From Lytechinus pictus (taxonomy: Eukaryota): DNA of 64,000 nucleotides. Every line of letters starts with the position of its first letter. Within the stretch, counting starts at the first letter, position 1. Both the position numbers and the translations under genes were made by a program. The notes beneath the pieces are model-generated. The model did not search any database and was not told the DNA's origin. It worked only from the letters and a program-made list of their open reading frames with translations. The stretch is taken from the NCBI RefSeq assembly GCF_037042905.1, contig NC_087251.1:6884001-6948000 (forward strand). Direction: 5' to 3'. This document shows positions 19,301 to 60,539 of this stretch, piece after piece.

Positions 19301-19595
19301 AAATTAGGTAATAATAAACAAGGATATCCCAATTATTTTATGACAATTTTCTTCCCTTTCTTACCCTAACTCTTTATTTCCAATTTTAGGGCAGTTCTGG
19401 TTAAATATATATTCTGAAATACTTGTTTTTACTATATCGACATAATATGCAAATTTATGCAAATTACTTGCTTATTTGCATAGATACAGCGTGTCTCTTT
19501 GGATAAATCTTTTTATTTTGACTCAAAGAACATTTGTGCCAAGTGGGACATTTGTACTAAAAAATGCAGCGTACAACCTCTTAACAAGTCTACTA
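16376..19595. mobile_element. 3.2-kb foldback non-autonomous DNA transposon, possibly Academ-like
   Basis: Termini TAGTAGACTTGTTAA / TTAACAAGTCTACTA; arms ~16376-17340 vs ~18630-19595 and ~17945-18170 vs ~18400-18630 are reverse complements; 3-bp TSD AGC deduced from the empty paralogous site AAACATAGCATATC near 37651-37664. Confidence 0.88.
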
Positions 19596-19982
19596 AGCAT
19601 ATCTACTTTTATCTGGGTCCTCATAACATAAAGCTTAGTGAATTGTTATGGGAGAGATTTTATTATTGATCATTCATACACAATAATCAATGAAATCAAT
19701 ATTGAAATCAACCCCACAGCAATCTTTATGTTATGGAGCTGAATACCAAGAGTGTTTGGTTGTCTACATCAGACCGATGTTAATGAATGAAATCAACCCT
19801 GTTTACATGAGGTGACATGGCAACAAGAGGTACTTAGATATCTTATCTACACCGTAGGAGGTAATAGTCAGAAACTAAAATCACATATTTAAAAGTTGAA
19901 GCACCACAAAGAATATTAAAAAAACAGCTGCACACACATATGGCTTGGAAGCTACTGGGTTTCATTGACAACCTCTGGTTCC

Positions 19983-22900
19983 TCATTTGATGAAATCACT
20001 GATGAGAGCATAAGAGAAAGAAAGACAGAGAGTGAGACAAAGAAGAAAATAAAGACAGAGAGAGAGAACTATATTATTATAATGGAATAAAATCAAAGTC
20101 AAGATGAGATTTGAATATGGATAACTTAAAATTTACTAAATCCTAAAGTAAGCATTAAAAATGAAATATATTCAAAAGTTTACAGTAAAATATTTTGCAA
20201 GTGTGACTTAAAATCAAAGTTGCATGTAGTATAATATAATGCATCACATCATTCATTGGTCAGGGAGCATGAATGAGATCATAAACTTGATACAATAAGC
20301 AATTTGGTGCAAAATCATTACTTAATTGGCTTAGTCGTGACTTATTGAAGGTCAAACTTAATTCCTTGTGAAACAGTCCCAGGAAAGAAAATTCTAAATC
20401 AATATGTTTACACAATTTCTAAATAACAAAATCAACTTGTTTACAGCTAACAAGGAAATAGAAATGGTCATAAACAGGAAGCAAAATAGAATTGTTACAG
20501 TATTCTAATATTTCAAATGCATTTGAACAGATTTTGTACTATTCAAAACCTACTTCCCATTAAATATTACAATAAGAGACTTTGGATATTCTAAAAATAC
20601 AACTTATACATATATGTTCACACAACTTTCAGGTATTGGATGGATCTTGACCATCGACGGCACATTCACAACAAAAATGGTTAAAATCTAAAAATGTATT
20701 TTTATTCAGAATTAACAGGAAAGAATGGAAACTGCAGTCTATGTACACAGAGATCAGATGGACTGAAATATGGAAATAAACTTAAATATCTGTATGCAAT
20801 AAATTCTATTTTTTCTATTACCATTTTGTCATTTATCCTCTAACTTTTAAAGAAATGTAGACATATGTTCACTTTTGCATAAATGATGTATTATCAAATT
20901 CAATAAAATAATACATACATGTACATTTTTATTCAATTTCCAACAAAATTACTTTGGCTTTGCTTTCTCAAAATAAAGTGAAGTGTTAAAGTTATTTTGT
21001 AACTCTACCTTAGTCTAAGGCTAGGCTAAAATGATGTGATGCTATAGGAGAGTTTGAAGAATCAAATTACTTATTTACACAGTATGCTTGTGAGTTAACT
21101 GGGATCATACTCATGTTTTAAAGGCAAAGAAAACTATCATATTCATCATTTCAAGATAGATTGTAATGTTTTGAATGCCAAATAAGGTGATAAATTGATA
21201 ACATACATGTAGTTATGGAAATTCATGTATTGTTTGGCAACCCATAGTTAAAAAAAATCAATAAACCATTGTTTAAGTTAAACCAGGGAATATGGACTAT
21301 TGGTTGGTCCATTCTAATCTTAAAATCAACTAGACTAATCAGGCATTTAGTCCACACTTCTATGGAAAGATTTCATCCTGCTTGATAATATTTATTAGAA
21401 ATTTAATATACCTGGGAACTCAGTTTAATTCATTTATATTCATACAATCTTTTTTCTTCTCATTACATACCAGAACTACTTTTCAAGAAACTTTACTTTA
21501 GAGGAAATCTGTAGTTGGTAAATGAGCTGATGACTTGCACTCGATTAAAGTATGGTCTCAGTTGAGTAATCCTTGGCCTCAGTTTAGTTAACCTTTGGTT
21601 AACTTCATCAATGCTATGAGAATATCACAGATTGTGTTCTTTGTTAATTGAACACATTATATTTCTATATGAATTACCTCAAAATAGATGGTAGCTTCGA
21701 TGAATAAGCAATGTTTTTATGTCCACAGCCCTCTTCACTATGAAATGAAACCATTTGGATTGGATCGGCTGAGGCTGGTCTTCTTTCAACAGCTATGTCA
21801 TAAAGCTAGGCAGAAAAAAAACATGTTGGTAGTTAATCAAATATGACTGATTTCTATGTCTAAATAACAATACAAATAAAGGGTATTTCTATACAATGTT
21901 ACATACTGATAGGCTATGCATGAATACGTGTTGCAAACCCCCTAATTCCTTTCCTGCATTTACATAAATATAATTTATTTATTAATTTTACAATGACAGA
22001 GGCATAATATAGATCTTTCACAAGAAGACTAATTTTGTATCTCAGCACCTCCCAATATTGTATGATAAATATGATAAAGTTTACCTTCCTTCCTAGGTCA
22101 TGTGGTACAATCCAGTCATCTTCAGCATGGAGAATAAGAATAGGACATGTCACATGCTCTATGCTGAATACAAAATATAATCAAATTTTCTATGATTTAT
22201 TTAAGAAAAATACAAAAGAATATTGTTATGGTATTATTTTCACCAGCAATAGCATCCTAACTTGCTGGCTTCTAAATCAGTCATCACTCATCTTTGAAAT
22301 TAGAAGAATTTTACATTTTAAACATAAACTTAATAAAATTGTTCCAGAAAACTTGACTGAAGCTTTAATGAGATTACAGCAATATATAAAGAAAGACTGG
22401 ATTCCAGGACTTGTATTTCATTTCCTCAGATAACAGAGATTTGATGGATTACACTATCTCTTTTTGAGCATCTTTCTTTCACATCATCTCATGGGTGCAT
22501 AAGGTGAACAAGTGGAACACCTCTGGAAGTCTCGCCTGCATTACGCGATTCGATATAGCAACAGTGCTGACTTTGAAAATAGCTATTGAATAATTATTCA
22601 CAAAAGAAAACATTCATATTATAATGATAATTATATGATATGATAATACTATGTCCATTGACCCAAAATGACCTTTGACCATGATCATGTGATCTAAGAT
22701 GTGTGTAAAACAATCATTTATACTTGATTACCCTTATGTCTATAGATTTATGAACTAGATCCATAGGGGAAGGCGGGTTAAGTTGAGCATAGGGGCAAGT
22801 TGAGCCACCAGCCCCAGGCCAATAATGAATGAGTCAGACATTGTGGTGGTGTCATGTATTGATGACCCATTGCATAACCCCTAAACCCACCACATTGTTT

Positions 22901-25900
22901 TCAACTTTGAAACAAAAGTACTTTTTTAGAGGGAAAAATACAAATTTCAGCCAAAAAAGTAAAAAAGGGAATGAAATAGATAAGTGCTTTCTACACACAC
23001 ACGTCTTTAGATATAATAAAGACATAAGAACAACATTGTTAGTCCAGGTATGATCTTAATTCTTGTCATAGTCTTTTACATGATGGATGCATAAGAAAGG
23101 TGTGGATTCAAAATTGTCGTATTAAGTTCGGACTGAAGTTGAGCCAGCCAACATGGGGCAAGTTGAGCCATGGTAATTCTTATGGTAATGCATATAAAAA
23201 ACAAACAAACCTTAAAAAGCCATTGATATGCAGGCAGAAAGGAGCAAATTTACATGTCTGTTCTATTCCTTTTAGAGGATGTTACTATTTATAGAGAATA
23301 AGCAAGTGAAAAGACTTTAAATAAAAAATTGACATGCTGGTTCTTCCTCCATACATTTTGTACAAATTTTGTGTGGCTCAACTTACCCCAGAATGTGGCT
23401 CAACTTACCCAACAGATGGGGCAAGTTGAGCCATTTGACATCACTTTTTTCAAAGGTGAAAATTACTTTCAGTGTGGGGGTAGAAAGTTATATATAGGTG
23501 AAAAATATTTCAGAAGAATTAAATTTTAAGGCAAGGTACTTATTTCTACAAGATTATTAATCATATCAATTCTAACATGCAAAAAGCAAAAGGTGTCACA
23601 ACTTAACCCGCCTTCCCCTAACATTTCAAAGTTACGATGGTAATTCAACAAATACCCCTAACATGGCCAAAGTTCATTGACCCTAAATGACCTTTGACCT
23701 TGGTCATGTGGCCTGAAACTAAGGCAGGATGTTCAGTAATACTTGATTACCATTATGTCCAAGTTTCATGAACTGGGTCCATATAGTTTCTAAGTTATGA
23801 TGTCATTTCAAAAACTTAATCTTAGGTTAAGATTTGATGTTGACGCTGCCGTCTGAAAAGTGGCGCCTATATAATAGTCTTGCTCTGCTATGCAGGCGAG
23901 ACAAAAATGATAATCTTTCCCTATGAAGGAATTGTATTATACATGTACTTCATACTGGTATGTGGTCAAATTTATACCGATGTGAGCGGATGAATATGTA
24001 GTTGTATATTTGAGGTTGTACTCCATTGTCATGATTATTTCTGTATCATAGGATATAGAAGGAGGGTAGTGGGAACTTACTTAACGTCACTCTGAAAGTA
24101 TGGAGCTGTAGAATTAAAAGCTTGATCAAAGTAACCTCTGCTGTATGGAAGAATGTTCCATGGCTATAAAAGAAGACAAATATACAGCTACATGTTATCA
24201 CACAATTCTCTTTTATATATCCATCTATGTGAAAGTCTGTAATACGCTACACTGAAAATATGGAGCCATAGAATTAAAAGCTAGATCAAAGTAACCTAAG
24301 TTGTATGGAGGAATGTTCCAGATATATAAATTAAGACAAATATTGTTTACATGATATATCATATATTCTATTTTCATCTCCTGTCTTTCTCCCTCCCCGG
24401 CATTCTCTTCATCACTCTCTCCTCTCCTTTCATCTCACCCTCCACCTCTCTATGATATCATCTTACTAATAATCTCACAATTCATGAATATGTCCCATAG
24501 CTGGATCAATTAGATAGAGTTATTTACCATTCCAAATGGATGTCTCATGACCTCATCTAGAAGGTTGTTGAATGGTGCTTCTAAGACTAGACCTGTAGGA
24601 CATCCCTCTATCAAATAAGAAATATAATGTATTACTCATTTACACACAGGATGACTATATGTTTCAGTCGAGTGTAGAGTATAGTGATTTTATGCATTAA
24701 ACTTTATGCAAAATAAAATGATTTTATATTTAAATGGTTTGTCAAAATCTGACAATAAAATAGATTGCAAAATTAAGTATATCATTCATGTTACAGGGTT
24801 CAACAAAGTAGATTTTCTATAGTACTGTTCACACTCACCTTCTCTGCATATTTTTGAAGTGAATACTGTGGATATTCTGAAAGAAAGAGAACAAATAAAA
24901 GTGGAATTAAATGCTGAAAATCAAAACTCATCATACAATCAACATACAAAATCTACAAATATATGTGTACATGTATAGGCATTTACAGTGACATTTGTCT
25001 CAAGAATATTCTATTCTTGGGCAAACTATTATTCTTATCTTGAGCACACATAACGTATGTATAAACATAAAAGAACAGAGAAATGTTTTGAACACAGCTG
25101 AATATTTACATCAATAAAAGTAAGTTATTTCAGTTGAGAATTTACTAAATCGTTGACCTGCAACTGCAATAGAATGGAATTAATTCATTCATTTGAGTTA
25201 GCTGTGAACAACAGGTTGAATATTGAGTTCAAAGAACCTTACCCGGCTCCAATGGAATGTCCCCAGATGTAGAAAGGGGAATCCCCTGTCCTTTCTCTCA
25301 GCCATCTATACACTGTTCTTACATCATCATGAATACCATCCGGAGTTGTATAACTTGATGAATCTCCATATCCTTAAAAAAAAAATATGGTCATTGGCTC
25401 ATTTCTTGCTTTGTTTCACAACAAGCAGAGCTTATTGATATTGCACAAATTTTGAAAATATGTATAAGAAAATCTTCTGGAAAACAGAAATTTAAGTCAT
25501 AAACTTGATAAGAGAAATTAAAAAAGTGTTGCGGCTCTGGCAGTCTCGCCTGCATTACGTGATTCAATATGGCAGCAGTGCTGACTTTGAAAACGACTAT
25601 ACAATAATTATTAAAAAAAAAAAAAAATCATAAAATAATAAAAATACTACGTTAATTGACCTAAATGACAACTGAACTTGATCATGTGACCTGTGCAAGA
25701 TGATCAGTGTTACTTGATTACCTCTATGTCCACATTTCATAAAAAAGATCCATAACCTTTGAAAGTTATTATGTTAATTCAACAAATACCCCCAATATGG
25801 CCTAAGTTCAATGACCCTACATGACATTTGACCTTAGACATGTGACCTGAAACTCAAGCAGGATGTTCAGTAATACTTCATTACTGTTATGTCAAAGTTT

Positions 25901-28900
25901 CATGAACTAGGTCCATAGGCTTTCTAAGTTATGATGGCATTTGAAAAACTTAACCTTGGGTTAAGATTTCAATGTTGACTCACCCAACATGGTCTAAGTT
26001 CATTGACTGTAAATGACCTTTGAACTTGGACATGCAACCTGAAATTCAGGCAGGATGTTCAGTAATACTTGATTTTCCTAAGGTCCATATACTTTCTAAA
26101 TATGATGTCATTTCAAAAACTTAACCTTAGGCTAAGATTTCAGTGTTGACGCTGCCGCCGTCGGAAAAGTGGCACCTATACTTTGTTGTAGTCTCACTCT
26201 GCTATGCAGGCAAACAAAAATGCCTTATTTGGATATAATCATGTGTAGAAAAACATCTTTTACACAGACAGCCAAATTCCTGTCATGCCAGACATTTTAA
26301 AAAGATGGTTTTTTTCAGATTCTCAAATGAATGATTAAAAAAAACTAGCACATCAATGATGTGGAGCTCGTCCGGCATCTCGCAACGAAATTTAACACAA
26401 TTTTTATTTCAGCCCAGTTGACACTGTAGTGAATTATATTGGTGACATAAATTGATAATATAGAATTGAAATTGATGAAGAAATGACATAGAAGCATTTT
26501 TTGTGATCTATGAATAATTTTCATATAAATTAAGCATAAATAACTTTCTAGTCAAAATTTCTTAACTCTGTGTAGAACCTTGGTGAACCTCATGCAGCTC
26601 TCAGATGGAACAAAAATAAACAAAATCAATCAACAAATAAATAAGTAATTTTTGTGAGTTTTGAAAATACATGAATAAATTAGCATATTTAATGAATTTC
26701 AAAATTCTGTGTTGAAATTTTGTATCACCACCTCGAGCTATTATATAAAGCAAACAAAATTGAAATTGATCAACAAATGAAGATTTTTTTTTTTTTTGTG
26801 ATTTATGAATAAATTTTGCATAAATTAGCATAAATAATTTTCCAGACAAAATTTCAAAATTTTGTGTACAAGTTTGGTGAACCTCATGCAGCTCTACCAG
26901 ATGGAAGAAAAAAAATCAAAATCTGTCAACAAATGAAGAGGCATTTTCTGTGATTTCTGAATAAATTTTGCATAAGTTAGCATAAATAATTTTCCAGACA
27001 AAATTTCAAAATTCTGTGTAGAAGTTTGGTGAACCTCATGAAGTTCTACCAGATGGAAGAAAAAAAAAAATCAAAATCGGTCAACAATTAAAGAAGAAAA
27101 AGCATTTTATGTGAATTTGTAAAAATATGCATAAATTAATTTCGCATAAATTAGTATAAAAATTGTTCTGGTCAAAATTTCAAAATTCTGTGTAGAAGTT
27201 TGGTGAACCTCATGAAACTCTACCAGATGGAAGCAAAAAATTCAAAATCGGTCAACAAATAAAGAAGCATTTTTTGTGAATTTTGAAAAATGTGCATAAA
27301 TTAGCATATTTAATGAATTTCAAAATTCTGTGTAGAAGTTTTGAATCCCCCACCTAGTGCTATCATATAAAGCAAACAGAATTGAAATTGGACTTAAAAT
27401 GGCGAAGAAGTAGCACTTAGAAATTGTGGACGGACGACAGACGCCAGACAACGGACGCCACGCCACGGCATAAGCTCATTTGGCATTTCAGGCAGGATGA
27501 GCTAAAAATGAAAGAAAAATAATCTAATTGTACAGACCTCGGTAGTCTACAGCAACAACATGGAATCCAAGTCTTATCAATAATTTATACAATTCTACTT
27601 GGTGTGGATTTGCTCTGTAAAATAACAAAACAAGAAAAGCATTTGTTTTACTATTCATTTTTTCCTCTTTGAATAATGATTTTAATTTGATCCAGTAACA
27701 AGTAAACTGAACAAATGAAAATGATATTGAAAACCAGAGATAGAAAGAGAAAAGGAAAAAAAACAAGTGGAGTGCCTCTGGCAGTCTCGCCGGCATTACA
27801 CGATGCAATATAGCAGCAGTGCCGACTTTGAAAATGACTATAAAATAATTATTTACAAAAAACACCACTTATAAGTAATAAAAATGATACGACCATCCAC
27901 CCAATATGTCATTTGACCTTGATCATGTGACCCAAGACTTGTGCAAGATGATTACTACCTCTATGTCCACATTTCATGAACTATATCCATAGAGTTATGA
28001 TGGCAATTCAACAATTATCTCCCAACATGGCCAAAGTTCAGTGATATTTGAACTTGGTCATGTGACCTGAAACTTGCACAGGATGTTCAGTGATGCTTGA
28101 TTACTCTTATGTCCAAGTTTTATGAACTACATGTACATCCATAAAACGTTCAAAGTTATGATGGTAATTCAACAAATACCCCTAACATGGCCAAAGTTCA
28201 TTGACCCTAATGACCTTTGACCTTGGTCATGTGACCCCAAACTTAGGCAGGATTTCAGTAATACTTCATTACCCCTATGTCCAAGTTTCATGAACTAGGT
28301 TCAAATACTTTCTAAGTTATGATGACATTTCAAAACCTTAACCTTAGGTTAAGATTTCGATGTTGATTCCCCCAACATAGTCCAAGTTCATTGACCCTTA
28401 ATGACCTTTGATCTCAGTCATGTGACCTGAAACTCAGGCAGGATATTTAGTAATGATAAGATTTCAATGTTGACACCACCATATCTGAAAAGTGGCGCCT
28501 ATAGTCTCGCTCTGCTATGCAGGCAAGACAAAGAGAGGTGAGAGAAAGAGGTATAGATTAAGGAGAGAGGTATAGGAGGGAGAGAGAAAAAAAAAACCAA
28601 TACTTTATTTGTATCATTTGATCAATCTTGAGAAAATAATTCCCAATAATCAATGTATATTTTTAACTTTGAATTTTACTTTTGGTTATTAGTACCTTGA
28701 ACCTGAAATGCCATGGCAGTACATAATCACTGGTCTATGGTCTCTTAATGCTTTATCAAAGAACTCTGCTGATATTTCATCATCTTCTCTGGCAGGTCTT
28801 ACAGAAGTTGGAAGAATTTGCCTAAAAACAAAACATATACAGTTTGATTTTAAGAGATTTTATTCCCATTGTACAAGTATCAAATATTATAGAGAAAATG

Positions 28901-31900
28901 TTTATGATTCAAATTTATGGTTTGCTGGATTAATCTAAATGATGATAAAAATTGTCAAATGAAATAATTTTCAAAGGTGATATAAACACCCTGCATGATT
29001 CCTTTGTACTCATTCAAAAAGTTTTTTCTTCTGATTCATTTGAAATGTCACTATCCTTATTTTTGTAAGGGGAGAGCTTATTTCTAATTTTTGTATAAAA
29101 AAACAATTGCTACTATCACTTTTATAATATGATTTAACTTAAATCAATTTTAATCCATTCAAACAATTGCACAACTGCTTACCAATAATATCATAAATGC
29201 AAAGTTCACCTTCTTATCTAAGATAAAAACCTTTGGAACAAGTAGGCTTATGTCGAAACAGAAAAATCAAAGAATAAGAACAAAGAAAGTTTGAGAAAAA
29301 TCAGACAAATAATGAGAAAGTTATGAGCATTTGAATATTGCAATCACTAATGCTATGGAGATCCTCCCATTGGCAATGTGACAAGGATGTGTGATGTCAC
29401 ATGTGAACAACTTTCCCTTTTATGGACTATAAAATACACCCAAAATGTATCTTTTTGCTTTTTCTTATGGTGATACAAACTCTTTATCCATGATGTATTC
29501 TTTAAATATCTGTATTACATGCCCTCCTATAGAAAGAACACATGATCTACTGATAGATGTGATAAAAGAGGCAGTTTAACTGAAATATATACTAAAGTAA
29601 TGGGGAGAGTTGTTCACAAGTGACATCACACATCTTTATCGCATTGCCAATATGAGGATCTCCATAGCATTAGTGATCGCAATATTAAAATGCTCATAAC
29701 TTTCTCATTATTTGTCCGATTTTTCTCAAACTTTTGTTGACCTGTTTCTTTGATTTTTCTGTTTTCACACAAGCTACCTTGTTCCAAAGGTTTCATTCTC
29801 CTTTAACAGAAATGTGTTCTATGCTATTGCTAACTCTTCTTGTTATTTCTACTTCACATCAACATTGGACAATTTATATGTGATATGTTGTTCCAGATAA
29901 ATATAGATATTGACTTGCTCAGTAACTTCTTATTAGCAGTGGTGTCCACATGGGAAGGGGGAGGGGCTTCCCGACTTTTTTTACAACTAAGAAAAAAAAG
30001 AAGGAAAGAGTGAAGGGTGAAATATGACATTTTCTGAATATTATATAAAAATCTATCACAAAATTAGATTTTTGTAGTGAAAATGTCAAAATTTTTACTC
30101 GCTCGCTTCGCTTGCTCGTATTTTAAAATAAATTTTTACAAGGTATGCCATATCAAGTCTCCTCAAAATTTTTGGCTCATCACGCCACTACTATATTACC
30201 AAAGTATGAGACTTTTAAATTATTGTTTTGAACTGCAACTCATATATACAATGTTTATTAATCAATGTATCAAAATAAAAAACATTCACATCCAGAAAAC
30301 TCAACTAATCACTTTAATATTCACACATTATTAACCTAAATGACATTTGCGCTTGCATTTCTGAAATATCCCGATTAAAATCTCTGTGCAAAAGTTGAAT
30401 AGTGATGGAAACATTACACATCCCTGATTGTAAACCTCTCTTGAATTTTATGTATACTTCATTATTTATTAAGCGATGGAACATTAAATGTCTGCTCCCA
30501 ATAATTCTTAATTGTATAACAGACCTGCCAACCTCTGGGAATGAAAAACTGTATGCTGTGATAAAAAAAAACTGTATTTTTCCCCAAAAACGTGTATTTC
30601 ATAATGAAATGCGTGGCGCACTTGCTCATCGCAGCGCTCAAGCTGCATGCAAGCTAAAATGCGCACTGCTCTTGCAGATGAAAAAAAACAAACATTGAAA
30701 CGTGTATATCTCACCCTGGTTTTAACAAAATGATTGAAAAAAAAAACAAGTTACCTGAAATTACATTGATCTAATAACCATATTTGTGTAAGTTTTATGA
30801 AATAGAGACATATAGAGATGATTTTTCTCAATAAATTACGACTTTGTTAAAAAAAAATATATATATATATATTTTTTAAAACAAAAACGTATTTTTTAAA
30901 GAACAAACGTACTGCCGTATTTTGGTTGCAAAAACGTACTAAATACGCCAAGAACGTACTGGTTGGCAGGTCTGGTATAACCACAAAATGGTGAGTGATT
31001 TCGCATGAAAAAATCAGAATGCATCTCATTTCATATTCAAATAATTCTAATCAAACCGATAGCCAAGAATACCCTAAACATTTGATTCATCAAAGTGTTT
31101 ACTCGAGAGTCATACTGTGACATAAGTATAATGAGCATTTAATATCATAAACATAAGACACTTTTGTTCTGTGAAAATGGCTAATTTTCAAGTACATGTG
31201 ACTATTGTTAGATACCACATATTATGAATGTATGTAAAAGATTGTTGGGACAAAAGAGTAGACAAAATATTGACTATATAACAAATGGTAATATTCATGA
31301 ATAACATTGCTTATTAGGAATTGCCCTGGAACAAGACTATACTTGAATGAAAGTCTGGCGCAAATATTCACTAATGAATGATACACGCCGTATAAGCTAA
31401 AACAACAACAACAACATCTTACCACACTCCAAGCTGAACTCCATTGGTAGAAGGTAGATAGATATACATTGACCACATAATAAATGGTAATATTCATGAA
31501 TAACATTGCTTTATAATTAGGAATTGCCCTGGAACAAGACTATACTTGAATGAAAGTCTTACCACACTCCAAGCTGAACTCCATTGGTAGAAGGTAAATA
31601 TACATTCCTTGCTCCTTTCAATCCATATACCTCAGGAGCATGGTAGTCTCTGAATACAGGACACTTGACTGTTTGAAAAAAAATATGTGCAAAACCTTTT
31701 GAAAACTTCAAAATGTACAAAGTATGGATGTGATGATCATTTCCTCACATTCTTGTTGTAGAATAGCATGAATTTAAAACAACTAATTATTATTGGTTTC
31801 TATAACACTCTCAAGACATACAAAAATACTGTTAGGGGCTTAATGGCCATTCATCCCCAAAGTATAAAAAATAGCCCTTAGAGGATACAAAAGAAGCCCA

Positions 31901-34653
31901 ATACATTTATAAAAAAATAATTATCTTTAATTTTGCATTTTTTAAAATTATACTGTGAAAACAATTAAATTTACATCTAACACTAAAATCTTGATACACG
32001 TATGTCCTTGACGCAATTAACCATAACTAGATTAACATTTTTTTTAAATCCAGTACTTTTAATCAAACAATTTATTTGTTCAATCTGGACCCAATATTAT
32101 CATCAGATAAGAGTCTAAATACAAATATTAAATTCTGTCCCTAGAATAAGAAGCTACTCACACAAAACCGGAACCAGTAATTTTTATTTTTTTCTAATTG
32201 CAAACCTTATCTGAAAGCAAATAACGTTTGTACCGGAATAAAAAGCAAATAAAGGTAATACACATCTGCAATATCTTTCCCAGTCATATGGAAGAGAAAA
32301 GAAAAGAACAAAAAGAACAAGAAAGTTCAAATCTAAACCCTCAGCATTAAAGACGGAGAACACTGCTCAAGACTTGATATTTATTGTATACCAGTACTAC
32401 ACACATCAACTGGTTAGATAATCATACTCAATGTTGTACAGTTTGCATTTAGAAATGGTTAAAAACACAATTGCTTATAAAATCTACATCATCTATAACT
32501 CTGATCATGCTTATGATAATTTGTATCTTAATACAGAAGAGATGTTTTAACTTTAATTAAGAATGACTCAAGTTAAAACTATTAAACTGATATTCTGTAG
32601 TCATGTAAATAAAGACTACATGAAAGTGATTTTACTCACGATAATTGAGGAAAATAAGTTGGAAAGCAAAGTCAGGGATGAAATAAACAAGAATTGGGAA
32701 GATTGTGTAGAACAAAATGATATTCAGCAAACATAGCTTCCATGTCCAACTCCATATAATAGCCCTCTTTCTAAAAGTAAAATAATCAGTAAAAAAAGGA
32801 AGAAAGTCTGAAAGTTATTAAGGGCCTTTTCACACGTGAATCTTGAATCATAATTGTAATGATTGCAATTCGTCTTTAGAATCATCAGACCTTTCACATG
32901 GAAAATTCGTACTGTAATTTGAGTGAAACTTAGCTGCAATTCACCACCGGAGTAGAATTTGTGATTGTGATTAGCGTTCGTGATTCTAGTTTGGTTTCAC
33001 ATGTGCTAAAAAATTTTCATTAGCCTTATTTTTCACTGGAATCATCATTCAAATTACAATTTTGTTTACCGTGTGAAAGGGCTGATAGAATGCTCGCTGT
33101 GCTCACTAGTATACTTAGATTCAGGTCTCAGGATATATTAAAAGCAAATTAAGCAAGAGAGGTAAAAAAAATAATATCAATATCCATATATTTTTGGATG
33201 ATGAAGAAATTACCCTAATACCACATAGTACACTTCTTTGTATAGTGCTTACTTCTAAGTGATCTACAAATAATACAGCATAATGCGTTTTAGTGTACTT
33301 CACAGAATAAATTTATGCAAGGTACCTCACCTGCACAATGCAGCATAATGCAATGTGAATCGATTTCTTGCTGATGGACGTCGTTATTTGAATCCACAAC
33401 CCTCTGTTTCAAAGTCTGAAGACTAATCCACTGGGCTACAATGCTCAAGAAATAAGACACTTCAACCAAGCATTTAAAAGAGAGTGCTTATTTTTCTTCT
33501 CTCATTCATTCATTGACAAATTTGTAAAGCCAAATGAATGTAGCAAGAAAGGTGAAACAAATGGAATAAGGAAATAAACATCCCTGTGCTTGTAAATACT
33601 GTTTATGGAAGAAGGGAAGTTTTCACTTTTCTTGCTTAGCCAGATTCTATAATTGTAACTAAACAAAATACAAGAAAGTTTATTTATTGTCTTGTTATGG
33701 CAGATTTAATGGTGGCTGAGGAAGTATGATGAATTTCAAGAAAATATTGTTTGATATGATTTATTGTATGAAAAGTATTAGTCATAGAATGGGATTCTGA
33801 TGTCTGGACAATTATGCAGATAAAACATCTTTTGCTCTTGATTTTCTAATTTTGCTTTGTAATATTGTCCGATCTTAATTTTGGTTGATTAATGAAATAT
33901 TGATTGCAAAGTTCCTGAAACTGCTGTTTTGTCCGGACATACAACTATGGATGCCCCAACCCTGCACAGTGCCCCTTGTTTTCACATATATGCGTATCTA
34001 CCAATTCTAATAAAAGAAGACCTACAACTATAAACTTTACATCTTCAACACATAGAGAGATATTCATTAAGAAATTTCAATTCAAAATGCTGGAATAATG
34101 GAAATTTCAGGCATTTCATGTAACATCCTCAAAATCCACCCTTTCAATCAAAATCTCCAAATTATGTGGACAGACATAGGACACCACTTTTTTTTTGTTC
34201 AATCTGAAAAAGAATGGCCAAGGCTTTTTCCAAGAAAATCATTGACATTATCACAAATTTTATGAGATTTTTGGCATACTTGCTCATTAGAATATAAGGA
34301 ACATTATCATATGGAAATTTGGTGGAATTTAGAAGAAATTCAATTAAAATTTTATGTTAGGTGCTCAGACATAAGGCTCCCTTCATAGGGTCTGCTTCAG
34401 GTCATGCTGTAGATCAACCAAGATGAGCTCAGCGGCAGCAGCTCCTTGGCCACATTCATCTGTAAACGAACCTCACATTAGTGTGACATGGCCATGGGTT
34501 AGCAGATCTAATTGCTACTCACCCCCATCTCTCCTTTTTCTTGCAAGCCGACGCTTCCCCGGCTAATTTTGTCTCGTCCACGCCTCGCTTACAGGTCACA
34601 TCTCCACTTGTGTGGATTTTGCTTGTAGAAGTTGTGTCACCTCGGAAACGCAT
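19983..34653 (-). CDS. ABHD12: ABHD12-like lysophosphatidylserine lipase / alpha-beta hydrolase, copy 1 (12 coding exons, 374 aa)
   Basis: Exons in transcript order: 34653-34523, 32770-32640, 31668-31563, 28821-28696, 27614-27538, 25372-25243, 24876-24839, 24607-24528, 24163-24081, 22163-22085, 21805-21678, 19998-19983. All introns GT-AG and phase-compatible, 1125 nt total. Motifs: MRFR start, TM segment then [39 protein letters not shown] (Ser), [18 protein letters not shown] (Asp), GHKNI (His), SDFIK*. Confidence 0.9.
22508..23907 (-). mobile_element. Helentron-associated (HINE/DINE-1-like) element, family A
   Basis: Subterminal inverted repeats GTCTCGCCTGCA / TGCAGGCGAGAC, short terminal hairpins, internal tandem TGACCTTTGACC repeats, A/T-run flanks; counterpart at 40571-41107. 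Confidence 0.7.
22766..23618. mobile_element. Tc1/mariner(pogo)-type MITE nested in a family A element
   Basis: Perfect TIR GGGGAAGGCGGGTTAAGTTG / CAACTTAACCCGCCTTCCCC, TA TSD; empty site GATCCATAACATT at ~40821-40833. Confidence 0.88.
24245..24325 (-). pseudogene. Degenerate duplicate (pseudo-exon) of ABHD12 exon 9
   Basis: Closely similar to 24081-24163, but the acceptor AG has become AT and the donor is lost; also present in copy 2 (~41437-41520). Confidence 0.65.
25524..26220 (-). mobile_element. HINE-like family A element
   Basis: Same ends and internal repeats as 22508; absent from the corresponding intron of copy 2. Confidence 0.7.
26345..27508 (-). mobile_element. HINE/Helitron-like family B element
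   Basis: One end CTAG plus hairpin CACATCA-A-TGATGTG; subTIR GAGCTCGTCC / GGATGAGCT; GACG-type microsatellite near the other end; internal ~125-bp tandem repeats; absent in copy 2. Confidence 0.7.
27763..28532 (-). mobile_element. HINE-like family A element
   Basis: ACAAGTGGAGTGCCTCTGGCAGTCTCGCC...GCAGGCAAGACAAA; absent in copy 2. Confidence 0.7.
29222..29806. mobile_element. Kolobok-like MITE with ~190-bp inverted arms
   Basis: AAACCTTTGGAACAAG...GATGTGTGATGTCAC mirrored by GTGACATCACACATC...CTTGTTCCAAAGGTTTCATTCTCCTTTAA; TTAA terminus on the right, left end eroded. Confidence 0.7.
29937..30190. mobile_element. hAT-MITE (family of 3304, opposite orientation)
   Basis: CAGTGGTGT...GGCTCATCACGCCACT ends; shared body. 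Confidence 0.6.
30520..30974. mobile_element. MITE with 6-bp TSD
   Basis: Perfect TIR CAGACCTGCCAAC / GTTGGCAGGTCTG, GTATAA duplicated on both sides; no insert at the paralogous site ~45940-45965. Confidence 0.8.
32821..33083. mobile_element. PIF/Harbinger-like MITE
   Basis: TIR GCCTTTTCACACG / CGTGTGAAAGGGC; absent from copy 2 (~48965-48975). Confidence 0.7.
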
Positions 34654-35348
34654 TGTCTTATACAATGTTGTATATAAGTACTGTTATTTGATCGATAGAT
34701 TTTTGTAGCTTCCAAATCAACATGAAACTCTACTCAGAAAAAGATGTAATTCAAATAAAAAGTAAACATACCTTTGCTCTCAATCTCAGTCAGACAGAAA
34801 TTCAAGGAGGAACAACCACGTTTAGACATTTTCTCTATGAAGTCAACAAACTTTTAAAGAGTTTAGTTTACATTTACAGACTCAGTACCAATAGTTATCC
34901 ATTAAAATTAATCTATTTATCAAAGTCCCATATGACTGCACATTGGCAAAATGAACCGATGTACTATATAAATTAAATTACGGTTATTGTTTTTTTGCCA
35001 GGAATATGAAATTTTGTATCATGAGAACATTGAGTTTAATGAAAGAAAAAACAAAAGAAACTTCTGAAAGTGAGTGATGACTGTTCAATATTTGTAACGA
35101 GTTAATAATTAAGAAAAGTCATGATATTTTACTTATTTTGTTATTCATTTTTAGAAAACAATAATAATAATGCTTCACAAACAACACCCCTGGATATTTT
35201 ACTAAAACTACCGCCTACTCTGTAGAAGTGCTCGCCTATGTTGCATGAAAATGGTAAGCAGAATTCTACATCTATCACTGTCTCAGTCTTACCTCTTAAA
35301 CTACCATTACTCGTGTACGTGGTAAGGCGCCCACGTCAGGGCGCCGCT

Positions 35349-35665
35349 GAGGGCCCAATAACACAAAGCTTAGCGATGAATAGCAAATATGAGAGAACAC
35401 TTCTGATTGGTTCCTGGTCGGTAATTTGCGCCAAATACGCATGTAAAATTGATCTTGACAGGTCAGTTCATTTAGCGACTGATCTTTGTGTTACAGAGCC
35501 GCCCTGGGCTCCGTAACACAAAGGTTTGCAATGAATTGCAAGTATGAAAGAACCGCACTGATAGGCTCCCAGTCAGTATTTTAAAAAGAGTGTGCATGCA
35601 ACAAAGATCTTGATTGGTCATTGGTATTTCGCGATTGATTGCAGACCTTTGTGTTACGGAACCCT
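35349..35665. mobile_element. Two adjacent short palindromic MITEs
   Basis: Each has TAACACAAAG.../...CTTTGTGTTA inverted ends (~35350-35500 and ~35503-35665); an older relative lies at ~19614-19741. Confidence 0.6.
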
Positions 35666-38085
35666 GGTCTAACAAATTAAGGCCATGACCAGCCATGGAA
35701 TAGTGTCATAACAAAATCAGGACTTACGACAAAATTTTTGTGCTACATCAAAATTATTATTTCTTTGTTATTGATGAATATCAGCTCGAAATGAGTGCCA
35801 AGTAAGTGAGTTTCATCAAGCAATTTGCCAGTGATTTTCACTAAACTGTTATGTGCTACTGAAATTCTTAATTCTGATTGGCTGAATAAAGTTGGGAAAA
35901 CCACTGACAAATTGCTTTGTGAAAAAAATCACCCTTTTTCTTTTTAACAAAAATCATACACAAGATGACAAATGTGTAAACTACTACTACTACTACTACT
36001 ACCACTACCACTACCACTATTACTATTATGAATCAATATAGCAGGGTACTATATCAATATGCACTATTCTTGTTTACCTTTCCTTATCAAGATCACCCAT
36101 GCATGATCAGTACTAAAAATATCAACAGCACAAAAAAAAAAAATCATATTTGAGGTAAAAGTTACACATTACTCGAAACAACTTACACAAAATATGCACT
36201 GCACAAACAGTATCTATCCCTTTAGATTCATTCTTTTTTTGCCCAAATATTATGATAAAATCATCACAAACTCTGTTGGGATACAGATATCTCTTTCTCA
36301 TAAAAAAAGATGGAAAAACGGGTAAATCTTTAAAAGAACTATTCTACGATTTAAAAAATGCATCGCCATTTACTTATTTAATTAATTAAAAAAAATAAAG
36401 GTCGGTAACTGTTTGAAACTGGACATTGTGCATAATTCATAATTAACAGTTATTTCAGTAAGCAGTGAGGTTGTGTAGTCTACACATATACAGTAATACT
36501 TGGTACTTAGAAGAACTAACAGTATGAATGAGATATTCCGCCAACTGTGCAATAGAATTAGAAACCTGGCCCTTTTCAATTTGTCAGAAAATTTTGGCAA
36601 ATGAATAATAAATGAGACCTTTCAGACTAATACTCTGTATCACACTATTTATTGACAGATTTGAATCATAATAAACTATGCATACACAATTATGTGTATC
36701 AAGGCTATTCTACAACGGATAAAGTTTTTAGAATACTCGAATAAATACATGAGATATTGCAACTTTGACTCATTAAAACTATTGCCAATTGCAGTAAATA
36801 TAGATTTTTTCATTAATAGTATACTAAACAAAATCATGATTTCAGAACAATGTTTTTTTTTGCTTCAATCAATAAATATGTTCTTTCTTTGCTCTAAGAC
36901 AATGTGATTACAAAATGTTATTATACAGTATAATTCTTTCCAGCTCGAAATGAGTGCCAAGTAGCTGAAAATTTCATGAATCAATTTGCTAGGGATTTTC
37001 ATTTAACTATTATGAGCTACTGTAATTCTTAACTATGATTAGCTGCATAATTTGATTTCCTTCATTATTAATACAGAAATATATGATTTGTCTAATCATA
37101 TACCTCATATGAACAAGCATCAAATACACTCCATTGGCACCATAATCAGGAATACATGGCACATCACAAACTACAAAACAAGAAGAAAAAAATTCAAATA
37201 AGAGTACTTATATAATAAGGAGATGTATTCAAAATCATTAAAACATCACTATCAATATTGAAGCATTATTATGTGTATTCCAAAGCAATAGAGTAGATGC
37301 CTGCAGTATCATTATTTTAACTTGATATCAAAGGAACTAATAACGTCAGCTTATATAATTTCTCTGTAGTTATTCAAATGTCTATTATTTTATTAATTAG
37401 CCCTGGCTTGGATAAGCCATTGCGCTGATCAATTTAAATTACTTTTGTGTATTCAAATCACTGTTGTTGTTCAAATGTCTATTCTTTTAGTAACCACTGG
37501 CTTGGATAAGCCATTGATTCATTTAAATTACTTCAACAGACTCAAGTCAATGTTGTCTGCCACTAAAGGGATAGAAATTATCTAATTTTATAGCTTCTGC
37601 CTCCATCAAATCATGAAATATCTTTTCAAATGTTCAGAAGAAATGTAAGTAAACATAGCATATCTGCTTTTATCTCATAACATAAAGCTTAGTGAATTGT
37701 TATGGGAGAGATTTTATTATTGATCATTCATACACAATAATCAATGCAATCAATATTGAAATCAACCCCACAGCAATCTTTATGTTATGGAGCTGAATAC
37801 CAAGAGTGTTTGATTGTCTTCATCAGAACGATGTTAATGAATGAAATCAACCCTGTTTACATGAGGTGACATGGCAACAAGAGGTACTCAGAAATCTTAT
37901 CTACACCGTAGGAGGTAATAGCAGGAGGTAATACTCAGAAATCTTATCTACACCGTAGGAGGTAATAGTCAGAAACTAAAATCACATAATTAAAAGTTGA
38001 AGCACCACAAAGAATATTAAAAAAAAACAGCTGCACACACATATGGCTTGGAAGCTACTGGGTTTCATTGACAACCTTTGGTTCC

Positions 38086-41000
38086 TCATTTGATGAAATC
38101 ACTGATGAGAGCATAAGAGAATGAAAGAGAGAGGGAGACAAAGAAAAAAAGAAAGAACGAGAGAGAGAACTATATTATTATAATGGAATAAAATCAAAGT
38201 CAAGATGAGATTTGAATATGGATAACTTAAAATTTATTAAAACTATCCTAAAGTAAGCATTAAAAATGAAATACATTTAAAAGTTTACAGTAAAATATTT
38301 TGCAAGTGTGACTTAAAATCAAAGTTACATGTAGTATAATATAATGCATCACATCATTAATTGGTCAGGGAGCATGAATGAGATTATAAACTTGATACAG
38401 TAACAATGAGCAATTTGGTGCAAAATGACTTAATTGGCTTAGTCGTGACTTATTGAAGGTCAAACTTAATTCCTTGTGAAACAGTCCCAGGAAAGAAAAT
38501 TCTAAATCAATATGTTTACACAATTTCTAAATGACAAAATTATCTTGTTTACAGCTAACAAGGAAATAGAAATGGTCATAAACAGGAAGCAAAATAGAAT
38601 TGTTACAGTATTTTAATATTTCACTATTCAAAAACTTCTTCCCATTAAATATTACAATAAGAGACTTCAGATGGATATTCTAAAAATACAACTTATACAT
38701 ATATGTTCACACAACTTTCAGGTATTGGAAGGATTTTGTCAATTGACTGCACATTCACGACAAAAATGGTTAAAATCAAATTTTTTTTTTTTATTCAGAA
38801 TTAACAGGAAAGAATGGAATGTCAGTTTATGTACACAGAGATGGACTTAACTATGGAAATAAACTTAAATACCTGTATGCGATAAATTCTATTTTTTCTA
38901 TTACTATTTTGTCATTTATCCTTTAACTTTTAAAGAAATGTAGACATATCTTCACTTTTGCATGAATCAAGTATCATCAAATTCAACAAAATAATACATA
39001 CACGTACATTTTTATTCAATTTCCAACAAAAATCACTATGGCTTTGCTTTCTCAACATACACTGAAGAGTTAAAGTTATTTTTTTACTCTACCCAAGTCT
39101 AAGGCTAGGCTAAATGATGTGACGCTATAGGAGAGTTTGAAGAATCAAATTACTGATTTACACAGTATGCTTCTTGTGAGTTAACTGGGATCATACTCAT
39201 GTTTTAAAGGCAAAGAAAACTATCATATTCATCATTTCAAGATAGATTGTAATGTTTTGAATGCCAAATAAGGTGATAAATTGATAACATACATGTAGTT
39301 ATGGAAATTCATGTATTGTTTGGCAACCCATAGTTTAAAAAAATCAATAAACCATTGTTAAGTTAAACCAGGGAATATGGACTATTGGTTGGTCCATGCA
39401 TTCTAATCATAAAATCAACTAGACTAATCAGGCATTTAGTCCACACTTCTATGGAAAGATTTCATCCTGCTTTATAATATTTATTAGAAATTTAATACGC
39501 CTGAGAATTCGGCTTAATTCATTTATATTCATACAATCTTTTTTCTTCTCATTACATACCAAAATTACTTTTCAAGAAACTTTACTTTAGAGGAAATCTG
39601 TAGTTGGTAAATGAGCTGATGACTTGCACTCGATTAAAGTATGGTCTCAGTTGAGTAAACCTTGGCCTCAGTTTAGTTAACCTTTGGTTAACTTCATCAA
39701 TGCTATGAGAATATCACAGATTGTGTTCTTTGTTAATTGAACACATTATATTTCTATATGAATTACCTCAAAATAGATGGTAGCTTCGATGAATAAGCAA
39801 TATTTTTATGTCCACAGCCCTCTTCACTATGAAATGAAACCATTTGGATTGGATCTGCTGATGCTGGTCTTTTCTCAACAGCTATGTCATAAAGCTAGGC
39901 AGAAAAAAAACCAACATGTTGGTAGTTAATCAAATATGACTGATTTCTATGTCTAAATAACAATACAAATAAAGGGTATTTCTATACAATGTTACATACT
40001 GATAGGCTATGCATGAATACGTGTTGCAAACCCCCTAATCCCTTTCCTGCATTTACATAAATATAATTTATTTATTAATTTTACAATGACAGATGCATTA
40101 TATAGATCTTTCACAAGAAGACTAATTTTGTATCCCAGCACCTCCCAATATTGTATGATAAATATGATAAAGTTTACCTTCCTTCCTAGGTCATGTGGTA
40201 CAATCCAGTCATCTTCAGCATGGAGAATAAGAATAGGACATGTCACATGCTCTATGCTGAATACAAAATATAATCAAATTTTCTATGATTTATTTAGAAA
40301 AATACAAAAGAATATTGTTATGGTATTGTTTTCACCAGCAATAGCATCCTAACTTGCTGGCTTCTAAATCAGTCATCACTCATCTTTGAAATTAGAAGAA
40401 TTTTGTTCCAGAAAACTTGACTGCAGCTTTAATGAGATTACAGCGATATAGAAAAGAAAGACTGGATTCCAGGACTTGTATTTCATTTCATCAGATAACA
40501 GAGATTAATTGATTACACTATCTCTTTATGAGCATCTTTCTTTCACATCATCTCAGGGGTGCATTAAGTGAACAAGTGGAACGCCTCTGGCAGTCTCGCC
40601 TGCATTATGCGATTCGATATAGCAACAGTGCTGACTTTGAAAACAGCTATTGAATAATTATTCACAAAGAAAACATTCATATGATAATGATAAATATATG
40701 ATATGATAATACTATGTCCATTGACCCAAAATGACCTTTGACCATGATCATGTGATCTAAGATGTGTGCAAAACAATCATTTATACTTGATTACCCTTAT
40801 GTCTATAGATTTATGAACTAGATCCATAACATTTAAAAGTTACGATGATAATTCAACAAATACCCCTAACATGGCCAAAGTTCATTGACCCTAAATGACC
40901 TTTGACCTTGGACATGTAGCCTGAAACCAGGGCAGGACGTTCAGTAATACTTGATTATCCTTATGTCCAAGTTTGATGAACTGGGTCCATATAGTTTCTA

Positions 41001-44000
41001 AGTTATGATGTCATTTCAAAAACTTAATCTTAGGTTAAGATTTGATGTTGACGCCGTCATTGGAAAAGAGGCGCCTAGTCTTGCTCTGCTATGCAGGCGA
41101 GAAAAAATTGATAATTTTTCCCTATGAAGGAACTGTATTATACATGTACTTGTGGTCAAATTTATACCGATGTGAGCAGATGAATATGAAGTTGTATATT
41201 TGAGGTTGTTCTCTTAGTACCATTATCATGATTATTTCTGTATCATAGGATATAGGAGGGTAGTGGGAACTTACTTAACGTCACTCTGAAAGTATGGAGC
41301 TGTAGAATTAAAAGCTTGATCAAAGTAACCTCTGCTGTATGGAAGAATGTTCCATGGCTATAAAAGAAGACAAATATACAGCTACATGTTATCTCACATT
41401 TCTCTTTTATATATCCATCTATGTGAAAGTCTGTAATACGCTACTCTGAAAATATGGAGCCATAGAATTAAAAGCTAGATCAAAGTAACCTAAGTTGTAT
41501 GGAGGAATGTTCCAGATATATAAATTAAGACAAATATTGTTTACATGATATATCATATATTCTATTTTCATCTCCTGTCTTTCTCCCTCCCCGGCATTCT
41601 CTTCATCACTCTCTCCTCTCCTTTCATCTCACCCTCCACCTCTCTATGATATCATCTTACTAATAATCTCACAATTCATGAATATGTCCCATAGCTGGAT
41701 CAATTAGATAGAGTTCTTTACCATTCCAAATGGATGTCTCATGACCTCATCTAGAAGGTTGTTGAATGGTGCTTCTAAGACTAGACCTGTAGGACATCCC
41801 TCTATCAAATAAGAAATATAATGTATTACTCATTACACACAGGATGACTATAATATGTTTCAGTCGAGTGTAGAGTATAGTGATTTTATGCATTAAACTT
41901 TATGCAAAATCAAATGATTCTACATTTAAATGATTTGTCAAAATCTGACAATAAAATAGATTGCAAAATTAAGTATATCATTCATGTTACAGGGTTCAAC
42001 AAAGAAGATTTTCTATAGTACTGTTCACACTCACCTTCTCTGCATATTTTTGAAGTGAATACTGTGGATATTCTGAAAGAAAGAGAACAAATAAAAGTGG
42101 AATTAAATGCTGACTATCAAAACTCATCATACAATCAACATACAAAATCTACAAATATATGTGTACATGTATAGGCATTTACAGTGACATTTGTCTCAAG
42201 AATATTCTATTCTTGGGCAAACTATTATTCTTATCTTGAGCACACATAACGTATGTATAAACATAAAAGAACAGAAAAATGTTTTGAACACAGCTGAATA
42301 TTTACATCAATAAAAGCAAGTTTATTTCAGTTGAGAATTTACTAAATCGTTGACCTGCAACTGCAATAGATTGAAATTATTCATCTATTTGACTTTAAAT
42401 GTGAACTAGAATTTTAATTCGTCATGAGGACGAATTAGGTGATCTGTCTCTGATTTTCATGATCACGAATACAATCACCATGTTTATTGAGATCAATACG
42501 ATGATCATATTGAAAACTAAACTTTTATTACGAAAAGAACAAGTTGAATACTCTTGAAAAATGGGAAATGAGAAGTTTTGTGAAATAGGTGTAGGTGATA
42601 CACATGGTACATGTTATATTAAAAGGGTTTTAAACTATTTTATTGTGCAATATTTAAAATTATATACCTTGTAATGGTCATAAAGGACCATTTGTGAAAT
42701 GTTGAAAAGAAACAAAAAGAAACAAAAATTCTCATGTTCACCCCTGGGCTCGAACCGTGGACCCTGGAGACGCAAGTCTGATACCTAATACCAATTGAGC
42801 TACATTATTTCCCATAGACTTTACACATAAGCAAATTAAGAGGATCTCAAATCCAATTTTGCAAGAGAAATACGGGCATGATCTCGGCATCTGATCGGAA
42901 AATGGAGACCACACTTGCGATAGCTTAGAATCTCAGCTACAACATACTCCAAGCTCAGAGAAAACCGAAAAAAAAAGAAATGGAGATATGGCTCGCGAAA
43001 TAGAGGAATGTAAAATCAAGTTTTTAAGAAAAAGTCATTTCCCATAGAGATTGCACACAAAATGAGCAAAAATGACATGCCTCTATAACTTGCCATTTTT
43101 CAGGATGATATGTTCCTTTAAATGTAAATATAGCCATCACATTAGAAAAAGTATGTCCTCAGCTACAACATATAAAAAACTGAGCGAAAATTTACCAATA
43201 TTTACGGAGTTAGAGTCAAATTTGCGTAACTATGATGACGTCATAAATAGCAAAGTGAACATTTTTAGTTCCAACGCTATTTTGATGACATTGATAAAAT
43301 TTAGGGTCAAATGTGGCATGAAATCATATCTCCCATCCATACTCTATTCGAATATGAAAAAAAAATTGGGGGTCAACGGACTTCCTGAAGAGCTGTAATG
43401 AATTTTGTATAGGCATGTTTTTGCACATATATTGTCTATGGTTAGAACGCGCGCGCGTGCTGTAAACTTTGATGGAGGCTAATTCCGTTATTTCTTGTCC
43501 TAGAAGGTTGATCAAGGTATCAAATTACTCAGAATTATATTATCAATCCATTGATATGAAAAAAATGGCGATCCTTTGTTGTATAGTGCCGTTACGCACG
43601 AGAACACACGCGTAACCGTGCACGCGTGCACATTTTTGAAATGCTTAAAATGACCTGAACCATACTCCACTTTGGTCAAAAAGTAATTTTGAGCATTTAA
43701 AAATTTTGACACGCGCGTCGTGACCTTTACATGACCTTTGATGACATGGACAGTTGATTCTTGACCTGAAGTTAATGTGATGTAAATATTGTTGATTTTT
43801 GATAATTGATAATGAAGATATGATTGATAATGTGATTTTACAAAATGGCGTCTAGATGACGTCACGATAACCTTTTGACCTTAAACTTGTTTCATACACA
43901 TGACATGATAAGTCCTCATAACTGATGATATTTTGATGAAAATTGAAGATGTAGATTTTGAGATTTTACGCTAACAAGAAAAGGGCGGAAAAATAAAAAA

Positions 44001-50600: not shown

Positions 50601-50603
50601 ATA

Positions 50604-51612: not shown

Positions 51613-51639
51613 ACCCGAAGGTTTGAATGAGTCTTCCTT

Positions 51640-55242: not shown

Positions 55243-55287
<45 letters not shown>

Positions 55288-57862: not shown

Positions 57863-57899
<37 letters not shown>

Positions 57900-60486: not shown

Positions 60487-60539
<53 letters not shown>

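Follow-up and report, generated by a model that had tools for sequence, protein, structure and literature searches.

In a 64,000-nt stretch of the genome of the sea urchin Lytechinus pictus (NCBI RefSeq assembly GCF_037042905.1, contig NC_087251.1, positions 6,884,001 to 6,948,000; hereafter the window, in whose coordinates positions are given), the gene encoding the serine hydrolase ABHD12 is duplicated in tandem, and one of the two copies, copy 1, departs from the canonical copy 2 at four residues in the motifs of the active site. Two of these four lie at positions on which mouse ABHD12 depends to hydrolyse lysophosphatidylserine (lyso-PS). The reading towards which we tentatively lean, from the comparison of sequences, is that copy 1 would be a retained, membrane-anchored serine hydrolase that has switched from lyso-PS to a less charged, neutral lipid ester.

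The two gene copies and the changed active site

Self-comparison of the window places the duplication on the minus strand, with copy 1 at ~14-35 kb and copy 2 from ~35.8 kb upward. Both gene models were rebuilt on this strand, with GT-AG at every junction. Copy 1 (19983..34653, minus strand) consists of 12 coding exons (34653-34523, 32770-32640, 31668-31563, 28821-28696, 27614-27538, 25372-25243, 24876-24839, 24607-24528, 24163-24081, 22163-22085, 21805-21678 and 19998-19983) in an open frame of 374 aa and shows no difference from the L. pictus RefSeq protein XP_054759030.1. Exons 2-12 of copy 2 (38086..48923, minus strand; 48923-48793, 47774-47669, 45063-44938, 44619-44543, 44222-44093, 42072-42035, 41801-41722, 41357-41275, 40256-40178, 39894-39767 and 38101-38086) have the same lengths as their counterparts in copy 1 and agree with XP_054759028.1. 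Neither a frameshift nor a premature stop nor a lost splice site was found in copy 1, and its intact frame rules out a plain pseudogene.

The two copies are 95% identical. Across exons 2-12, exactly 10 residues changed from copy 2 to copy 1 (S61I, V70I, S80F, M125I, N161I, R170Q, H198Y, L231I, T233A and K335R in copy-1 numbering), in line with the count of about 10 in an earlier note on this DNA, and 15 further codons differ synonymously (nonsynonymous divergence dN 0.015, synonymous divergence dS 0.072 overall; exons 7-10 are identical in DNA). That note dealt with the span 25243-28821, which corresponds to copy-1 exons 4-6, and all four active-site changes it had named were recovered, with copy 2 in the canonical state. 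N161I (28707..28709, minus strand; copy-2 Asn at 44951-44949) turns HGN into HGI in the oxyanion loop (GGA AAT to GGC ATT), and R170Q (27599..27601, minus strand; copy-2 Arg at 44606-44604) turns HR into HQ through a CpG transition (CGA to CAA). In the nucleophile elbow (25245..25256, minus strand), GHSLGTG has become GHSIGAG through L231I (25253-25251) and T233A (25247-25245), with the nucleophile S230 (25256-25254) kept. The catalytic Asp D317 (22115..22117, minus strand; human D333) and His H356 (21719..21721, minus strand; human H372) are likewise present, and the offsets of the triad S230/D317/H356 (0, +87, +126) match those of the mammalian homologs (Ser246-Asp333-His372), so that the claim of an intact triad and open reading frame holds.

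By sequence, copy 1 belongs to the ABHD12 family. It was compared with the family criteria of a recent preprint (bioRxiv 10.1101/2025.02.19.639194; here and for the other papers cited, statements refer to the accessible parts of the source). Its length lies within 250-550 aa, its nucleophile motif has three mismatches, which is the most allowed (<=3), and the LGYHVVTFDYRG motif (<=3 mismatches, H and D fixed) is present with three mismatches, equal to copy 2. In a tree, copy 1 nests among the canonical proteins of Lytechinus, Strongylocentrotus and Diadema. A long helix with a hydrophobic stretch is modelled at residues 30-74, a candidate for the N-terminal transmembrane helix of the family. 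AlphaFold gives a confident model of the alpha/beta-hydrolase type (pLDDT, the predicted local distance difference test, 88.5), in which residue 161 follows the strand 154-158, residue 170 opens the helix 168-179 and S230 sits at the elbow between the strand 224-229 and the helix 231-246. A solved ABHD12 structure was found neither among 15 PDB sequence hits nor among the top fold hits, which were generic alpha/beta hydrolases only.

Residues for lyso-PS hydrolysis

Copy-1 sites 161, 170, 231 and 233 correspond to N177, R186, L247 and T249 of mouse and human ABHD12; in all four mammalian homologs checked, the Asn precedes the catalytic Ser by 69 residues and the Arg by 60, exactly as at sites 161 and 170. 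In docking, N177 and R186 touch lyso-PS, and the mouse variant N177A keeps near wild-type labelling with fluorophosphonate-rhodamine (FP-rhodamine) and has almost no lyso-PS lipase activity, which is also lost in R186A (bioRxiv 10.1101/2025.02.19.639194). The equivalents of H185, N277, E281, H285 and K373 are kept in the alignment (H169, N261, H269 and K357 among them), and those of Y205, W243, H245, D332 and F287 are kept at the same offset (Y189, W227, H229 and D316 among them). The comparison with the residues necessary for a lyso-PS lipase, which covered these other than the N123 glycosylation site, thus found H185, Y205, W243, H245, N277, H285, D332 and K373 in place, with Asn177 replaced by Ile161 and Arg186 by Gln170. 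Because these two equivalents are lost, copy 1 is probably not a lyso-PS lipase, a judgement that extrapolates from the mouse enzyme to the urchin one and from an Ala substitution to Ile or Gln. The database label 'lyso-PS lipase' is therefore probably wrong for copy 1, which fails both residue tests.

Oxyanion holes of the GX type are formed by backbone amides, so the side chains of N161I and L231I alone would not change the hole, and for this reason we rejected the idea of a destroyed oxyanion hole. The earlier note had argued that the changes hit the oxyanion hole. What survives of this is the position, since in GX-class hydrolases the oxyanion residue is the one that follows HG, and not the consequence for the hole, as the contact is made by a backbone amide, which is stated for the GGGX class and implied for the GX class (PMC1647292). 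The claim of altered substrate specificity fares similarly: it gains from the loss of lyso-PS hydrolysis in both mouse variants, and it is tempered by the behavior of R186A described below, which would also be compatible with a dead enzyme.

In the reading that we favor, ABHD12 would have been duplicated in tandem, with copy 1 as the downstream copy, and copy 1 would then have lost the polar and basic residues that bind the serine-phosphate head group, as the mouse mutagenesis suggests. Judging from the fold and the family, Ile161, Ile231 and Ala233 would repack a more hydrophobic contact between oxyanion loop and elbow, a combination that also arose in a horseshoe-crab paralog, and the oxyanion hole would survive through backbone amides. 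Copy 1 would finally have been retained to hydrolyse a lipid ester with less charge, probably with a role in a restricted tissue or stage.

Shared changes in a second Lytechinus species

Lytechinus variegatus possesses a canonical protein, XP_041469589.1, and a variant, XP_041469590.1, that carries V70I, S80F, M125I, N161I, R170Q, L231I and T233A, as copy 1 does, and is full-length as a protein model. At all seven sites S. purpuratus has the canonical state and the canonical Lytechinus copies are likewise ancestral, which assigns seven stem changes to copy 1 and none to copy 2 (binomial p=0.016). The occurrence of the same changes in both species means that the duplication is real and predates the species split. 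A divergence date for Lytechinus was not found in the literature searched, from the scope of which the L. pictus genome paper was left out. After the split, copy 1 acquired seven private changes over both species (P201, changed in both L. variegatus copies, was excluded from this count); in L. variegatus the private changes number six in copy 1 versus three in the canonical copy. When residues 150-240 of copy 1 were used as the query (7 hits among 40 candidates), no further cluster of the copy-1 type emerged, under thin sampling of echinoids, and judging from these sequences the type is so far known only from Lytechinus.

The stem changes are concentrated at conserved positions. Four of the seven fall on sites conserved at >=95% (44 of 330 sites), for which neutral placement gives p=0.007 with set A, that is, 120 homologs collected by a word-index search with the canonical protein and hence partly circular. 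Sites of this class are absent both from the 39 differences with S. purpuratus (Fisher p=2e-4) and from the 80 with Diadema. Measured against purifying selection for normal ABHD12 function, such clustering exceeds chance. Of the seven post-split changes, none lies at a site conserved at >=95%, versus four of the seven pre-split ones (Fisher p=0.07). In exons 2-6 we counted no frameshift versus ~4.8 indels expected in 250 nt of exon edges from the intron rates (P ~0.009). The active site of copy 1 has been released from canonical constraint, and its protein is likely under continued constraint.

Replacements in the wider family

In set A the ancestral residues are nearly invariant (N161 in 117/120, R170 in 119/120, L231 and T233 in 120/120 each). 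The family is less uniform in set B, 150 unbiased representatives of the wider family, in which site 161 is Asn in 104 and Ile in 7 of 137 aligned motifs, site 170 is Arg in 129 and Gln in none of 135, site 231 (Ser+1) is Leu in 136, Met in 10 and Ile in none of 148, and site 233 (Ser+3) is Thr in 104, Ser in 33 and Ala in 9 of 149. The earlier note had taken variants common among orthologs as a reason to abandon its reading; this applies in part, to the HG-Ile motif and to Ala at Ser+3, and not to Gln170 or Ile at Ser+1. Three of the four changes are thus of tolerated, recurrent types, with R170Q unique to copy 1.

Of the seven HG-Ile proteins, six had sufficient length for a tree, in which they fell on five separate branches. 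Among the ABHD12-like paralogs with HG-Ile or HG-Val are those of Limulus (XP_013785222.2), Tachypleus (XP_076305628.1), Pollicipes (XP_037073128.1) and Rhabditophanes (A0AC35UFR2); the Limulus protein combines HGI with GHSMGA, and the Tachypleus protein, from the same cluster, HGV with GHSIGA. Hydrophobic residues in place of the Asn of HGN were observed in horseshoe crabs, a barnacle, a nematode and others (P0184, P0278, P0201, P0269, P0177, P0195, P0248 and P0251). Ile161 and Ala233 occur together in 2/7 versus 5/130 proteins (p=0.04, without phylogenetic correction), and when 89 columns were scanned for co-variation with the loss of Asn from HGN (137 proteins), none of the sites 170, 231 and 233 stood out as a clear partner. 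These independent HG-hydrophobic paralogs are possibly an unrecognised functional subclass.

Gene conversion and a transposon in intron 6

From intron 6 to ~400 nt past the stop codon (19600..25173), copy 1 has been homogenised with copy 2: divergence amounts to 1-4% in introns 6-11, as against 12-17% in introns 1-5 and 13% in the distal 3' flank. A smaller converted patch comprises exon 3 and flanking intron (31465..31735). Identical runs extend in exon 4 over 80 nt (28808-28729), ending ~20 nt before N161I, and in exon 6 over 93 nt (25346-25254), ending at the L231I codon, so that GHSIGA lies inside an island of ~80 nt between converted stretches. Into this short unconverted island falls an insertion of ~1.65 kb in copy-2 intron 6 (42406..44057, minus strand), ~36 nt past the exon-6 donor. 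Its anatomy, with 12-bp subterminal inverted repeats, a 5' inner repeat, a 3' hairpin and a T-rich site, is that of a Helentron-type (HINE/DINE-1-like) element (compare PMC4067079), and insertions of transposable elements can stop gene conversion (PMC3924837). We rejected the divergence islands as proof of selection, since the transposon and the diverged introns suffice to explain them.

Shared states suggest conversion in L. variegatus as well: I139M is present in both of its copies, and Y198 and R335 occur in three of the four copies. In the sequencing run X10, the single contig over exon 11 has the letter of copy 2 at 21713 and that of copy 1 at 21767, in keeping with a polymorphism that the copies share through ongoing conversion.

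The intron-6 element is 74-77% identical to the 2.6-kb units of an array at 54474-64000, in which ~4 near-identical tandem copies with GATA/GACA microsatellites continue to the end of the window.

Selection, expression and competing explanations

Several observations weigh against the favored reading of copy 1 as a retained hydrolase of a neutral lipid ester. With the unbiased set B, neutral placement of the stem changes gives p=0.06-0.24, and beyond neutral expectation the clustering at the active site appears borderline. Moreover, all four key sites lie 2-14 nt from an exon junction, and when the clustering is limited to exon-edge codons, p=0.04-0.06. Conversion erases exon interiors and spares the edges with all four sites, so that the clustering is weak evidence of positive selection. 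The dN/dS ratio of the copy-1 lineage is ~0.5 in exons 2-6 (10 nonsynonymous steps per 430 sites versus 12 synonymous per 137, the synonymous ones split evenly between the copies), with no excess over neutral. D317 and H356 lie in the converted tract and therefore do not count as separate evidence that copy 1 is under selection. The AlphaFold model was built on a mostly canonical alignment and hence is no indicator of activity, the Arg of site 170 is retained in all seven other HG-Ile proteins, and the mouse variant R186A loses active-site labelling together with lyso-PS hydrolysis (bioRxiv 10.1101/2025.02.19.639194).

Most of the expression data point in the same direction. A search of sequencing runs listed none on record as RNA that contains the sequence, which speaks neither for nor against transcription. 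Four sequencing runs were compared with copy 1, drawing on 40 of 1859 differences, many from intronic repeats; N161I, L231I, T233A and all exon-exon joints fall outside these 40. At 27600 (R170Q), the raw RNA reads are canonical in 5 of 5 cases in run X21 and 24 of 24 in X23 (organism B; both samples come from one study, with a quarter of each sample covered), which puts copy 1 below ~10% of the ABHD12 transcripts in these samples (rule of three), and the X10 contigs show the canonical letter alone (44.2 of 44.2). In favor of expression, copy-1 letters of exon 5 are present in X1, with a depth of 40.9 of 90.9 at 27600 and 19.4 of 69.4 at 27554-27575. As the kind of this run is not on record and it also holds unspliced intron contigs (depth 2-13), X1 is not proof of a spliced copy-1 transcript. 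The upstream DNA that copy 1 could have inherited comprises at most ~1.13 kb (34654..35781, minus strand), from the start codon to the end of the duplicated 3' flank of copy 2, the homology of which extends to 35782; weak or narrowed expression of copy 1 would fit this.

Among the alternatives, the best surviving is that copy 1 is a pseudoenzyme or strong hypomorph, with R170Q and N161I silencing catalysis and the protein kept for lipid binding, as a membrane scaffold or for the damping of copy 2, which we consider possible, if doubtful. The mouse R186A result speaks for it, and R186P is an inactive disease allele in humans with polyneuropathy, loss of hearing, ataxia, retinitis pigmentosa and cataract (PHARC) (bioRxiv 10.1101/2025.02.19.639194). 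So does the concentration of the changes in the active site with the frame kept in two species, and conversion alone could preserve the Asp and His. Against it, both species keep S230, H159, G160, G228, H229, G232, R165, H169 and DYRG, all of them located beyond the long converted tract; in addition, three of the four replacements are types found in other family members, and Gln would be milder than Ala or Pro.

Rather doubtful, in our judgement, is slow decay, in which copy 1 would be a young, weakly expressed duplicate under relaxed selection whose exon interiors and 3' half are reset by conversion from copy 2, so that leftover differences pile up at the exon edges, where the ABHD12 motifs lie, and the intron-6 transposon mechanically shields GHSIGA. 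Much of the conversion pattern suits this account, namely the contrast between introns 6-11 and the upstream introns, the identical runs of 80 nt in exon 4 and 93 nt in exon 6, which end near and at the changed motifs, respectively, and the ability of transposable elements to stop conversion (PMC3924837). Of the 22 differences in exons 2-6, 14 are no more than 25 nt away from a junction (p=0.05), although the synonymous differences alone are not enriched at the edges (6-7/11, p=0.15-0.34), and the edge-corrected clustering given above persists. The 29 of 29 canonical RNA reads at the R170Q site, the short inherited upstream DNA, the six private changes versus three in L. variegatus and the CpG origin of R170Q also agree with decay. 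They are offset by exon edges without frameshift or splice loss in L. pictus, by the full-length L. variegatus protein and by the shift from four of seven to none of seven changes at highly conserved sites after the split. The claim of the earlier note that copy 1 is not a decaying pseudogene is supported for the most part, by intactness in two species, the seven shared pre-split changes, the lack of later changes at highly conserved sites and the lack of frameshifts.

A bolder form of the favored reading, which we regard as unlikely, would see copy 1 as a selected, active enzyme in which the four changes yield a hydrolase of neutral lipids and restore catalysis despite the loss of the Arg at the PHARC site. 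Copy 1 would then be the youngest case of a recurrent route, from HGN to HG-Ile with repacking of the elbow, to an unrecognised ABHD12 subclass, and the transposon would shield the elbow codons from conversion.

It seems very unlikely that copy 1 is still a lyso-PS lipase in which the four changes compensate one another and shift only kinetics or acyl-chain preference: most residues that contact lyso-PS are kept and the changes at 231 and 233 are conservative, but N177 and R186 are each required in mouse (bioRxiv 10.1101/2025.02.19.639194) and the Arg is found in 129/135 proteins of the wider family. A false duplication by tandem assembly of alleles, for which the 1-4% difference of the 3' half lies near sea-urchin heterozygosity (2.85% in L. 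variegatus, PMC13672419), is practically ruled out by the annotation of both paralogs with the same diagnostic residues in the second species and by the 12-17% difference of the 5' introns.

Other features of the window

No counterpart of exon 1 was found for copy 2 in the window by blastn and tblastn with copy-1 exon 1. The >15 kb upstream of copy-2 exon 2 (48924-64000) are without exon 1, copy-1 intron 1 measures 1.75 kb, and the tandem array at the window end may occupy copy-2 intron 1. Two other RefSeq models of copy 2, XP_063957863.1 (278 aa) and XP_063957864.1 (250 aa), are without the membrane anchor. Partial repeats of the 3' end and donor of exon 3 occur at 31269-31471 (copy 1) and 46226-47600 (copy 2); one of the copy-2 repeats is split by a 1.08-kb insertion, and the 278-aa isoform starts in such a repeat. 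Immediately upstream of the true exon 9, at 24249-24374 in copy 1 and 41443-41568 in copy 2, lies a degenerate second version of it (~80% identical) that has lost acceptor and donor and looks like a pseudo-exon. In the 3' flank of copy 1, and absent from copy 2, is a foldback insertion of ~3.2 kb (16363-19608) with long inverted arms that are 88-97% complementary. Outside the duplication, 836-1396 (minus strand) holds what we take to be an exon of a Rho-family small GTPase, RhoU/RhoV-like by motif.

Comparison with known systems

No description of the copy-1 ABHD12 paralog was found in print, in a search whose scope was without most subscription journals. Active-site divergence of duplicates is a familiar event and the pair is not a new system; its value is that of a natural experiment, with only 10 differences in exons 2-12, two of them at positions needed for lyso-PS hydrolysis and one of these a human disease site. 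The pair could reveal the basis on which the enzyme recognises the head group of the lipid, and whether Arg186 is dispensable for catalysis. That HG-Ile has arisen repeatedly, in horseshoe crabs, a barnacle and a nematode, suggests a mislabelled set of 'lyso-PS lipases' that probably act otherwise.

The closest known system is the ABHD12 lyso-PS lipase itself (human Q8N2K0, mouse, fly CG15111), with which copy 1 shares the fold and the triad offsets and, by its model, a putative N-terminal membrane helix, and from which it differs at N177 (Ile), R186 (Gln), L247 (Ile) and T249 (Ala). The HG-Ile/Val paralogs resemble copy 1 in the independent replacement of the HGN Asn by a hydrophobic residue, and the horseshoe-crab pair also in GHS[I/M]GA; unlike copy 1, all seven HG-Ile proteins keep the R186 equivalent, and identity is 33-45% versus 95% here. 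We know of no measured activity for these paralogs, for which no individual searches were made. The red and green opsins likewise combine an extended converted tract with divergence in narrow islands around functional codons (PMC3924837), whereas in the ABHD12 pair a 1.65-kb transposon lies in the exon-6 island and divergence is broad across the 5' introns, so that a mechanical block suffices without selection.

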